A DNA stretch of 64,000 nt, taken from sequence record NC_020079.1. One strand, written 5' to 3'. Shown here one piece after another: positions 16,816-27,520 of the stretch. Source of the DNA: Escherichia phage phAPEC8. Each line of letters starts with the position of its first letter. The stretch's first letter is position 1. A program made the position numbers and the translations under genes. The notes under the pieces were generated by a model, which saw only the letters and a list, made by a program, of their open reading frames with translations, ran no database searches and was not told the origin of the DNA.

Positions 16816-17775
16816 TTAGATTCCAATAATAGTTGCTGCTCGTTTATCCTTGGATCTGGTGTTTGCTCTACTACGTGACAAACCGCCGCAAGATTCACAA
16901 CGAATGATATCGAAAGAACTTACCGCAGTGTGGTATTGTTTACCAGTAACAACGTGAACGTGATCACTGCCACAACGAGAACAACGGACCTTCTCATCTG
17001 GGTAATAAGCGGATAAGTTAGGATGCTGTGGAATCCACGGAAGGATTTTCATATACAAATCACGGAGTGAAACAACATCACCATCATTGTAAATCTGCAT
17101 ACGTTCAAAAGCATCACGATCACCTTCACAACATGCTTTCCATAAAGGGAATCCCTCGTTATCCAGTTTTTCACTTTCTGTTTCGAAATATGCTCCCATT
17201 TCTTTAAGGGAGTTGGAAGGAAGTGCAAATTGTTTCTTAGCTGCCTTCAATGTATCAACAACTACATAATTAGAAGGAGGAGCCATATCGTGATATGCAA
17301 ATCGTTGGTTAATGTATGCACGGTCAAACTTATACCCGTTGTGTGCCACAACTACATCTGCCTCATTCAGAAGGTTCCAAAGATCTTGGCAAAGCTCCCA
17401 ATCATCTGTATGATCAATATCAAAAAGAGGATAAGAAGACAAGTTCTTACCTTCCACTTCACCAGTATACAGGTCAGCAGAAGAGTAAGATAACAAATAA
17501 CCCCTACGAATTACTTGATCTGGAGAAATGAAGGCTTTGAATCGACGGAAAGTATATGCAATCTCTGGTGCAGTTTCAACATCAATAATTTTAATAACGG
17601 GTTGTTTCTTTTTAACTAGCTCTTGTTTACTTGCTCCAAATCGTGCAAGGAAATCGTTCACTGTGCTTTTTCTTGTTGGACTACCTAAAACAATTGCTGC
17701 AATATTACGAGAAGACATACCCTCTGCACTCATACTAAGGATATCTGCTTTCTGCTCTTCTGTTAATCTGCTCAC
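16816..17775 (-). CDS. DEDD-type 3'-5' exonuclease with N-terminal HTH and C-terminal zinc ribbon
   Basis: Exo motifs IDVETAP (DxE), VAHNGYKFD, YNDGD; N-terminal HTH-like region; C-terminal CSRCGS...CESCGG. Confidence 0.5.
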   Translation of the reverse strand: MSRLTEEQKADILSMSAEGMSSRNIAAIVLGSPTRKSTVNDFLARFGASKQELVKKKQPVIKIIDVETAPEIAYTFRRFKAFISPDQVIRRGYLLSYSSADLYTGEVEGKNLSSYPLFDIDHTDDWELCQDLWNLLNEADVVVAHNGYKFDRAYINQRFAYHDMAPPSNYVVVDTLKAAKKQFALPSNSLKEMGAYFETESEKLDNEGFPLWKACCEGDRDAFERMQIYNDGDVVSLRDLYMKILPWIPQHPNLSAYYPDEKVRCSRCGSDHVHVVTGKQYHTAVSSFDIIRCESCGGLSRSRANTRSKDKRAATIIGI

Positions 17776-18890
17776 TCTGCCTCCTGTTGTGAGATGTATG
17801 ACTGAAGCATACTCTCAAATGTTGTATCGTCATTATCCCAGCGTTTCATGTATACCAACTGGAAAATTGTTTCTATCCATTCATCTGTTGTCATATGGAC
17901 TTCTTCTCCATCCCAAGAAGTAAAATTAACACCATCTGGGAACCATGAGTAGTAAGTATCTTTAACTGTTTGGAAAAGTTCTGCTTGAGTTTTACAAGCT
18001 GAAAGAAGATTAAAACAAGTAATATCTCCGAACTTAATATCAAAATCTTGATAAGGTCGGATACTATCTGTTTTATCTCCCATTAGCATCTGATATGCTA
18101 ACCAGTAACTGCCCCAACCTTTAACTTCTTTCTTTTTACCTTTATCTACGATCCATATATCGCCAATAGACTCGTCAATAAGAATTATATCTGGATTTTT
18201 AAATACTCCATCCTCTTTGTAGAAATTAAAAAGGATACTAGGAGTATGTAAACTATCTTTATCTATAGATACTACGATATAAGAAAATTTACCCGTCCTT
18301 TTATAATCTTTATAACCTTGGAAACCATACTTCTCTAACTCATCATCAGCTTCTATTACAGTAACAACATCACCATTGTGGAACTCCACAAGATAATCTT
18401 TGGTTTCTGAAAGCTGAAGTGGTTTGATATCTAATCGTTCAGATTTATATTCTACAGGCATTTTGAAGGCGTGTCTGAAAGTTTTTCCTACGCCAATAAC
18501 TCCGCAATATTTTTCTAAACGTAGATGTTTTAGAATACCTAAGACTTTTGTTTTAGCTGCTTGGAAGGTGTGTCCGATATCTTCTGGCGGGTATTGCTTA
18601 TCAATGATTTCGAACTCTTCCTTTGTGAAGGGACGTTTGTTTTTGGAGGCTCTTTCTGCATTTGTATCTCCTAGCCAACCTCCAATTTTAGTCTTGCTTT
18701 TACCCCAAAACTCTGTCTTATTTTTAAATTCCTTTTGAGCACCTGAAGGGATGTGCTTCGCAATGATTGTTCTTTTCTCTAATGCAGACGCTGCTTGGAA
18801 AGCGATCTGATCATAATCAATTGCAGCTATTGTTTCTTCATTGACATATAAATGAAGATCTTCAGGTTTAATTAAAATATAACCGCTAAT
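17772..18890 (-). CDS. RNase H / flap endonuclease (T4 rnh-like 5'-3' exonuclease); start codon non-canonical or unresolved
   Basis: Motifs AAIDYDQIAFQAAS, IEADDE, VSIDKDSLH, LMGDKTDSIRP match T4 RNase H in order; frame is open 146 codons upstream of the first ATG (18461) with no in-frame ATG/GTG/TTG; candidate ATT at 18890..18888 after a GGGGGA run. Confidence 0.55.
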   Translation of the reverse strand: MSGYILIKPEDLHLYVNEETIAAIDYDQIAFQAASALEKRTIIAKHIPSGAQKEFKNKTEFWGKSKTKIGGWLGDTNAERASKNKRPFTKEEFEIIDKQYPPEDIGHTFQAAKTKVLGILKHLRLEKYCGVIGVGKTFRHAFKMPVEYKSERLDIKPLQLSETKDYLVEFHNGDVVTVIEADDELEKYGFQGYKDYKRTGKFSYIVVSIDKDSLHTPSILFNFYKEDGVFKNPDIILIDESIGDIWIVDKGKKKEVKGWGSYWLAYQMLMGDKTDSIRPYQDFDIKFGDITCFNLLSACKTQAELFQTVKDTYYSWFPDGVNFTSWDGEEVHMTTDEWIETIFQLVYMKRWDNDDTTFESMLQSYISQQEAE

Positions 18891-18902
18891 ATTTCCCCCT
18901 AG

Positions 18903-19112
18903 TTATTCATCGTCATCCTCTGTTGAGAATGTTTTAGTATACGGACATTGACGACTTTTCGGGATTGCTATAACTTCATCTTGGTTAGCGTTAGAATAGT
19001 AGCAATATTTTGTATTGCCATTAACTTCAGAATCAGACAAGATTAAAGTAATTTGACCTGCTGCTACTGTGAAACTAAAAGCTAAAAGAACGACTGTCAG
19101 AATCTTTTTCAT
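18903..19112 (-). CDS. small secreted or lipoprotein-like protein (69 aa)
   Basis: AGGAGG RBS; hydrophobic signal-like N-terminus MKKILTVVLLAFSFTVAAG; two Cys. Confidence 0.45.
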   Translation of the reverse strand: MKKILTVVLLAFSFTVAAGQITLILSDSEVNGNTKYCYYSNANQDEVIAIPKSRQCPYTKTFSTEDDDE

Positions 19113-19184
19113 AACGCCTCCTAAAAAGCCTACCTCATTAAGTAGGTAGGCATAATATCATAACTAATCCCGCAAGTCAAGAAC

Positions 19185-27142: not shown

Positions 27143-27217
27143 GGCCCTGTAGCTCAATGGGAGAGCTGTCGGCTCATAACCGATAGGTAGCTGGATCGAA
27201 ACCAGCCAGGGCCACCA
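27143..27217 (+). tRNA. tRNA-Met (anticodon CAT)
   Basis: Hand-folded cloverleaf: acceptor GGCCCTG/CAGGGCC, anticodon loop CTCATAA, encoded CCA; T-loop ATCGAAA. Confidence 0.7.
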
Positions 27218-27219
27218 AC

Positions 27220-27294
27220 GTCTTTATGGTGTAATGGATAGCACAGGAGTCTTCTAAACTCTTAGTCAAGGTTCGATTCCTTGTAAAGACACCA
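27220..27294 (+). tRNA. tRNA-Arg (anticodon TCT)
   Basis: Acceptor GTCTTTA/TAAAGAC, anticodon loop CTTCTAA, T-arm CAAGG-TTCGATT-CCTTG, CCA. Confidence 0.7.
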
Positions 27295-27490
27295 GAACAT
27301 TTTAACATGAATTAGCTCAAGTGATTTGAACCCACTACTGATCATGGTGGCAGAGAATGAGGCAAGTATGTCAGACATTATAAACAAAGGCCACGGTTAC
27401 ATTAGAAGACATAAATGCTCGAAGAGCACCGTTCGTGGAGAACGGGGGTTGGTGGAGTCACCATTCATGGTAAAATGTTTTAAAAAACTA

Positions 27491-27520
27491 TTGACAACTA
27501 ACATTATTTTATGTTAGATT
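27491..27520 (+). promoter_or_regulatory. sigma70-like promoter inside the tRNA operon
   Basis: CTATTGACA, 17-nt spacer, TTAGAT/TAGATT -10; a few nt upstream of tRNA-Ser. Confidence 0.45.

Follow-up and report, generated by a model that had tools for sequence, protein, structure and literature searches.

The 64,000-nucleotide (nt) window of Escherichia phage phAPEC8 analyzed here (sequence record NC_020079.1; all coordinates are those of the window) carries on its minus strand a nuclease gene whose translation very probably starts at an ATT codon, 18890..18888. By its conserved residues and predicted fold, the gene product is a 372-residue flap endonuclease (FEN)/5'-3' exonuclease of the T4 RNase H/T5 D15 family. 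Most database records wrongly take an internal methionine, Met144, as the start. An earlier sequence-only reading of the window had argued that the conserved N-terminus needs a non-canonical start and had put forward this ATT as a candidate, and the comparative data described below back that choice. The features on which the argument turns are these:

17772..18890, minus strand: FEN-like 5'-3' exonuclease gene, entire coding sequence (372 codons, ATT 18890 up to TGA 17774..17772)
18888..18890, minus strand: proposed initiation codon ATT (aligned with the starts of relatives; annotated in phage ESCO13)
18895..18900, minus strand: Shine-Dalgarno sequence AGGGGG (4 nt before the ATT; 5/6 match to AGGAGG)
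18462..18887, minus strand: coding part for the N-terminus, residues 2-143 (lacking annotation in almost every public record)
18821..18807, minus strand: IDYDQ, with the invariant D25 at 18818..18816
18459..18461, minus strand: ATG of Met144, an internal methionine (used as start in most records, giving a 229-residue product)
Residues 22-35 from the ATT, minus strand: motif AAIDYDQIAFQAAS
Residues 179-184 from the ATT, minus strand: motif IEADDE
Residues 207-215 from the ATT, minus strand: motif VSIDKDSLH
Residues 269-279 from the ATT, minus strand: motif LMGDKTDSIRP

The TAA at 18905..18903 ends a 69-residue signal-peptide open reading frame (ORF), and the same frame is open for 376 codons from there to the TGA at 17774..17772. 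Its first 441 nt (18902..18462) comprise 147 sense codons without ATG, GTG or TTG, as established from the ORF list and a codon walk, and the ATG at 18461 is the earliest of the three codons in the nuclease frame. The absence of canonical starts had been read correctly from the sequence, although the length had been given as 146 codons. All four motifs reported at that stage (AAIDYDQIAFQAAS, IEADDE, VSIDKDSLH and LMGDKTDSIRP) are present in the order claimed, and the first is indeed upstream of Met 18461, by a measured 110-120 codons or so rather than about 100. Across the 33 long ORFs in the window, 4.6% of the codons are ATG, GTG or TTG. At that share, the probability that a given 147-codon stretch contains none of them is 9e-4, and the longest start-free run within any other long ORF is 106 codons. 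The run is not kept in relatives, where it is interrupted by a GTG at open-frame codon 33 (phi92) or a TTG at codon 16 (phiWec179), so its length is partly luck. What sequence comparison marks as the conserved feature is the lack of a canonical start at the true N-terminus, rather than the start-free run itself. Five other long start-free leaders turned up in a scan of the window. They look like non-coding frames, without a Shine-Dalgarno sequence followed by a near-cognate codon, which leaves the nuclease gene as the sole such case in the window.

Several lines of evidence indicate that the region upstream of the first canonical start is coding. In comparisons with phi92, phiWec179, L014 and L015 (L numbers denote loci in our collection), nonsynonymous differences (pN 0.16-0.25) fell well below synonymous ones (pS 0.7-0.8, synonymous sites being saturated), values that point to clear purifying selection comparable to that on the C-terminal part. 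Even with synonymous divergence at saturation, the frame of the upstream 143 codons is open in every relative. The PHROG 107 family ("exonuclease") matched open-frame residues 14-371 with E = 1e-55, and the N-terminal 147 residues alone still matched it with E = 5e-7. Searches with tblastn found the protein at full length, N-terminus included, in rV5-like, PVP-SE1-like, ICP1, PAK_P-like and many other phages. AlphaFold2, run on an alignment of 55 homologues, predicted one compact domain (mean predicted local distance difference test score 96, predicted template modeling score 0.90), in which residues 16-25, 39-46, 93-100 and 127-137 form beta strands. In this model, a 229-residue product would miss the catalytic D25 and several core strands. 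The sequence upstream of the first canonical start, which encodes the N-terminal third of the nuclease, is thus conserved and selected, and no canonical start is able to encode it.

These data bear directly on the possibility that the database annotation is right, i.e., that the 229-residue protein from ATG 18461 is functional and the upstream frame an untranslated remnant. This is how the gene is annotated in all GenBank and RefSeq records that we opened except ESCO13, no exonuclease feature covers the N-terminal part among the other listed records, and ATG 18461 is, after all, the first canonical start. However, no Shine-Dalgarno-like sequence precedes that ATG (the bases upstream are TTTCAGACACGCCTTCAAA). 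Met144 sits in F-K-M-P-V-E-Y-K, just ahead of the FEN EYK motif (Y148, K149), and is not conserved; the L016/L017 group has L-A-L-P at that place. Together with the purifying selection on the upstream 143 codons, the residue and strands that they carry, and the presence of the N-terminal region in distant homologues with ordinary ATG starts, this makes a functional 229-residue product very improbable.

The ATT, in contrast to ATG 18461, is preceded by a ribosome-binding site. The start region reads AGGGGG-AAAT-ATT, and its 4-nt spacing is the most frequent one in the window, being found for 17 of the 49 ORFs that have an AGGAGG-like hexamer. The signal-peptide gene immediately upstream has the same layout with an ordinary codon (AGGAGG-CGTT-ATG). 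Relatives have GGAGG or GGGGG at the equivalent place. RNA folding of the start region revealed no special structure (z = -0.6) and hence no sign of a structural switch.

We gathered the locus from GenBank, IMG/VR and Logan/ENA contigs and read every start region. The near-cognate pattern comprises 17 distinct start-region sequence types belonging to one clade. At the codon homologous to ATT 18890, all 17 have ATT, ATC, ATA or CTG and none has a canonical start, and this codon always lies 3-5 nt after the GGAGG or GGGGG. The starts are distributed as follows, with the canonical ones last:

ATT: phAPEC8 group; phi92/Bas62 group; Klebsiella phages FBKp34 and KP13-16
ATT, further lineages: L024; L025; L026; L029; L030/31; L037; L053-L059; L062
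ATC: phiWec179/L011; L014; L015; L023; L027/28; L032
ATA: L016; L038
CTG: L017; L036
TTG: rV5 (annotated start, in exact alignment with ATT 18890)
GTG: Seunavirus SPLA5a
ATG: Certrevirus PBES02; Serratia phage ChuuTotoro; L020; PAK_P5

In a neighbor-joining tree, the near-cognate starts fall in a single clade (Stephanstirmvirinae plus Klebsiella and metagenomic relatives), within which the start changed from one of ATT, ATC, ATA and CTG to another at least five times and never to a canonical codon. The Vequintavirinae, the sister group, use ATG, GTG or TTG at the same start position; in members other than rV5, an ATG or GTG stands at the ATT-equivalent codon or at most one codon away. Two cases within the clade are particularly informative. 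In L015, the ATC has an in-frame TAA immediately 5' of it, and one must go 35 codons on, past IDYDQ, to reach a canonical start, so this locus has no alternative to a near-cognate start. L036 and L037 encode proteins that are identical across the called 343 residues and yet begin with different codons, CTG and ATT. Within an ATT/ATA background, CTG is two substitutions away, and the only path that keeps a start throughout leads via ATG. This hints that ATG does arise at this position and does not persist. To our knowledge, a clade-wide near-cognate start pattern of this kind has not been described before. Here, one orthologous gene displays AUU, AUC, AUA and CUG at a single start site while a sister subfamily has ATG, GTG or TTG, and the persistence of near-cognate starts over deep divergence offers a natural comparative data set on selection for weak starts.

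The breadth of this sampling also speaks to another explanation, in which an original ATG was recently lost by mutation, leaving a pseudogene, or only seems to be missing through an error in sequencing or assembly. Nothing more than the missing canonical start favors it. The arrangement is common to 63 GenBank records at 95-100% identity, the 17 start-region types all have a near-cognate codon at this one site, the ORF is unbroken, and nonsynonymous divergence (dN) is far below synonymous divergence (dS). We give this explanation next to no probability, and the sequencing artefact or nonsense mutation that the sequence-only reading had kept as its alternative can be set aside.

It had also been suggested that the ribosome might read through the TAA at 18905..18903. 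In this explanation, read-through or programmed frameshifting joins the upstream ORF and the nuclease into one fusion protein. The window and several near-identical genomes do have the TAA in frame, and a 444-residue metagenomic protein, P0005, looked like such a fusion. However, the frame relation between the two ORFs is 0, +1 or -1 among close relatives: they are out of frame in MT944117 (L001), phi92 and phiWec179, and L015 has two in-frame stops. A cleavable signal peptide on a cytoplasmic replication nuclease would, moreover, make no biological sense. These observations led us to reject the read-through proposal, and we consider a fusion by either route extremely improbable.

P0005 itself proved to be a gene-caller artefact, since the DNA at the junction contains a TAG and translation of the locus does not give the query protein. 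Its source is a Logan contig from SRR30397360 (L023, 1001..2335) in which the TAG was read as Gln. The lack of a canonical start appears to have led the caller to treat the TAG as sense; in this one metagenome, the absent start gave rise to a spurious TAG-recoding call. A separate observation concerns the G-run at 18895..18899, which counts 5 G in the window as against 6 G in MT944117, a genome 99.9% identical. The extra G shifts the frame of the upstream ORF and leaves the nuclease frame and the distance between Shine-Dalgarno sequence and ATT unchanged.

A different question is how ribosomes reach the AUU. Initiation there could occur mainly by termination-reinitiation from the 69-residue ORF, with free ribosomes rarely initiating. 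Ribosomes reaching its TAA would then remain bound to the mRNA, be captured by the neighboring Shine-Dalgarno sequence and begin again at the AUU. This would change the route and not the start site, and it is partly compatible with an AUU start led by the Shine-Dalgarno sequence. In all lineages examined, the near-cognate start follows an upstream stop by 0-18 nt (by 12 nt in the window), even where the neighbor differs (an HNH gene in L036, a 34-residue ORF in L030). In E. coli reporters, about 40-50% of second-cistron initiations were by reinitiation at gaps of 3-20 nt with a Shine-Dalgarno sequence, and those reporters included the AUU context of infC (PMC3592434). On the other hand, short gaps and tight gene packing are general in these phages, which makes the arrangement unspecific, and the sister-clade genes with ATG, GTG or TTG starts are equally tightly arranged. 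Pure reinitiation would have no need of the strong, optimally spaced Shine-Dalgarno sequence that is conserved here. We therefore regard ordinary codon choice directed by the Shine-Dalgarno sequence as central, and reinitiation as the main route as unlikely, though deserving of some credence.

The 34-residue ORF of L030 (797..901) is an extra, very hydrophobic one (MFTDKPLTITLFLILLVLVGLIIKEAVYQHRHKD) between the signal-peptide ORF and the nuclease gene, and it ends 15 nt before the ATT. L030 and L031 had been considered as loci without an adjacent upstream ORF, a status that this ORF rules out.

Some points weigh against an AUU start at 18890, or against parts of the account built on it. Further in-frame ATT codons, at 18878 and 18872, could conceivably act as additional starts. 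In phiWec179, L027 and L032, the aligned ATC is preceded by ATT or ATA, which leaves a one-codon ambiguity in the start used. Because of phylogenetic correlation among the lineages, the statement that the position is never ATG is suggestive rather than statistically strong. The residue equivalent to D68 of T5 FEN is apparently Gly (in a hidden Markov model alignment with E = 0.25), and the active site would then depart from the textbook one; a nearly invariant aspartate, D27, might take the place of D68. No proteomic or ribosome-profiling data on the N-terminus of the nuclease were found in the searchable literature, and we infer the use of AUU in infected cells from the comparisons above. The purpose of a weak codon, be it dose limitation or sensing of initiation factor 3 (IF3), is likewise only inferred, from evolutionary persistence and analogy.

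The assignment to the T4 RNase H/FEN-like nucleases, already made from the letters of the sequence, was confirmed by the PHROG 107 match, the invariant residues, the fold and the alignment of motifs with T5 FEN. Twelve positions are invariant in 55 homologues (D25, R139, Y148, K149, E180, D182, D183, D210, K211, D212, D272 and D275), and two clusters among them are features in their own right:

18342..18353, minus strand: EADD catalytic acidic cluster, E180-A-D182-D183 (invariant columns; aligns to 'GVEADD' of T5 FEN)
18066..18080, minus strand: G271-D272-K-T-D275, a FEN helix-three-turn-helix-like metal/DNA-binding motif (aligns to 'GDLGDNIRG' of T5 FEN)

Like the solved structures of FENs, the predicted one has a PIN-like alpha/beta core built around a central parallel sheet. 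A profile search against the PDB was weak (E ~0.25), although its top matches were all T5 FEN, and the alignment at this E value pairs the 'EYK..R', 'EADD' and 'GD..DN' motifs of the two proteins. A single-sequence phmmer search of the PDB gave no match. A Pfam scan of the full protein and of its N- and C-terminal parts yielded nothing meaningful; PF02739 was absent even at E <= 1, and distant homologues carry precomputed PF02739 matches, some of them flagged as weak.

T4 RNase H (rnh, PDB 1tfr) and T5 D15 (PDB 1ut5, 1exn) are only 15-16% identical to the phAPEC8 nuclease, which is some 80-100 residues longer than either and has insertions. Both T4 rnh and T5 D15 start with ATG. ORF94 of rV5 and the Vequintavirinae proteins named 'putative exodeoxyribonuclease' (PHROG 107) are orthologues with 37-42% identity over the full length. 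ORF94 shares the Shine-Dalgarno-to-start geometry of the phAPEC8 gene and its start aligns with the ATT; the difference lies in the canonical starts of these orthologues, which are TTG in rV5, GTG in Seunavirus and ATG in Certrevirus. The nuclease most likely removes RNA primers and flaps in phage DNA replication and recombination.

The proposed mechanism begins with AGGGGG, which would set the AUU at 18890..18888, 4 nt downstream, in the ribosomal P site. Initiator tRNA would then read AUU as formylmethionine and give a product beginning Met-Ser-Gly-Tyr-Ile-Leu. Ribosomes that end the 69-residue ORF 12 nt away would probably supply part of the initiations. The weak codon may be kept by selection so that nuclease output stays at a few percent of that with AUG, much as in pcnB. 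A flap/5' nuclease might be needed only in catalytic amounts and be harmful in excess, which could select for a weak start.

The start codons of the clade (ATT, ATC, ATA and CTG) are exactly the four members of the near-cognate tier, AUA, AUC, AUU and CUG, that Hecht et al. placed at 1-2% of the AUG value in E. coli (bioRxiv 10.1101/063800). According to the same source, infC and pcnB are the only confirmed AUU starts in E. coli. The proposed nuclease start is of the near-cognate kind known from these two genes, and the ATT already stands in one record, that of ESCO13. The pcnB gene encodes poly(A) polymerase I, an enzyme that does harm in excess and whose translation is limited by the AUU, according to a passage of PMC3592434 that cites Binns & Masters 2002. 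The logic that we propose is alike, combining a strong ribosome-binding site with a weak codon. In contrast, pcnB is a host gene while the nuclease is a phage gene in which AUU, AUC, AUA and CUG take turns at the start position across a clade, and toxicity of the nuclease is only putative.

In infC, the gene for IF3, the start is AUU or AUC across bacteria (PMC5499595) and lies a few nt past the stop of the upstream cistron in thrS-infC (PMC3592434). Long conservation of a near-cognate start and alternation of AUU and AUC are features shared with the phage nuclease. The weak codon of infC is a feedback sensor for the gene's own product, and no such loop is evident for the nuclease. Judged by this analogy, it is possible that the nuclease start has an infC-type, IF3-sensing role. 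A bolder version, which we think doubtful, is that the weak start might serve as a sensor coupling nuclease synthesis to the host initiation machinery, as a phage counterpart of the infC circuit, one kept throughout the subfamily. Initiation at AUU, AUC, AUA and CUG would then rise when IF3 is limiting relative to ribosomes and mRNA or when guanosine tetraphosphate (ppGpp) falls, and the start may act together with a phage tRNA that has a CAU anticodon (29070..29148).

Public annotation of the gene is affected throughout. The window represents a Phapecoctavirus, 99.9% identical to MT944117, and the region is also 99.9% identical to that of Escherichia phage PNJ1809-36. The 63 GenBank records sharing the region are of phAPEC8-like myoviruses (Phapecoctavirus, Stephanstirmvirinae) and include some GenBank/RefSeq duplicates of single phages. 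With the exception of ESCO13, the records that we opened have only the 229-residue piece from Met 18461, the last 60% of the protein, named 'putative exonuclease', 'RNaseH' or similar, and show either nothing or small unrelated ORFs in the 441 nt upstream. Over the N-terminal 391 nt, 60 listed records give 'none', 'no annotation' or 'hypothetical protein', ESCO13 again excepted. The ESCO13 record (KX552041/NC_047770) contains HOR21_gp105 (YP_009786567.1), a 372-codon coding sequence from this ATT with a ribosome-binding-site feature, in DNA 98.7% identical to the window. The start was therefore known as a database annotation, one without following among the other listed records. The genome announcement of ESCO13 is silent on it (PMC5374246), and searches of the literature for phAPEC8, for ATT starts in phages and for ESCO13 found no discussion of this gene.

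Beyond the phAPEC8 group, phi92 and Bas62 are annotated from an internal GTG, to which the depositor has added 'No RBS identified; weak Prodigal statistics', phiWec179 from an internal TTG, and Klebsiella phages FBKp34 and KP13-16 likewise. Metagenomic gene calls of close homologues range from 229 to 369 residues, with varied false N-termini. The gene is truncated in these records because gene callers take only ATG, GTG and TTG. In Phapecoctavirus, Justusliebigvirus and the Klebsiella relatives, the recorded products have between 229 and about 345-363 residues where 372 are expected. An apparently core replication/recombination nuclease is thus truncated in essentially all public genomes of these widely isolated, therapeutic-candidate coliphages, and the truncated sequences spread into protein databases, families and structure predictions.

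Two side observations concern the records. The Seunavirus homologue in Salmonella phage SPLA5a (L034, OR413583, 265..1386) has a canonical GTG with GAGGG 3 nt ahead and is annotated from a position 76 codons inside that start, a second and unrelated mis-annotation in the family. Near-identical genomes are labeled 'Campylobacter phage', 'Acinetobacter phage' and 'Klebsiella phage ZCKP1', host labels that are doubtful at 99% identity to coliphages.

The nuclease gene has an RdgC-like gene on one side and a DnaQ-like exonuclease gene on the other. The neighboring features are:

18903..19112, minus strand: upstream signal-peptide ORF, 69 residues (TAA 12 nt before the ATT, abutting the Shine-Dalgarno sequence)
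16816..17775, minus strand: downstream DnaQ-like 3'-5' exonuclease, 319 residues (annotated 'DNA polymerase exonuclease subunit'; homologues have PF13482)
19180..19152, minus strand: predicted sigma-70-like promoter, TTGACT-17-TATTAT (consensus scan; TG before the -10 hexamer)
19151..19128, minus strand: GC-rich 8-bp hairpin followed by TTTTT (consensus match; directly 3' of the predicted promoter)

The homologue of the signal-peptide ORF in phi92 is annotated with a SignalP call. The AGGAGG and ATG of this ORF come after the hairpin and its T-run. The hairpin is annotated as a terminator in ASO2A and Schickermooser, and a promoter is annotated at the equivalent place in FBKp34. The hairpin would both terminate RdgC-like transcripts and form the 5' end of a new transcript. 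At the other end of the nuclease gene, the TGA overlaps the GTG of the DnaQ-like gene as GTGA (17772..17775, minus strand), a classic layout for translational coupling, and a GGAGG lies 4 nt ahead of that GTG, within the 3' end of the nuclease gene.

The window also carries a cluster of 11 tRNAs (27143..29148), two of them with a CAU anticodon. Its tRNA-Ile(GAU) was considered as an AUU initiator and discarded as an ordinary, fully paired elongator tRNA, and no tRNA in the window combines an initiator-like acceptor end with an anticodon matching AUU. The CAU tRNA at 29070..29148 (plus strand) has an unpaired, initiator-like A1.C72 atop the acceptor stem. By reading of its sequence, it also has an A11:U24 pair and the T arm GGUUCAAAUCC, both of which we take to resemble E. 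coli initiator tRNA. Its anticodon stem (CCAGU:GCUGG) is without the three G:C pairs, typical of initiators, that IF3 inspects. The other CAU tRNA, at 27143..27217, looks like a lysidine-type tRNA-Ile2.

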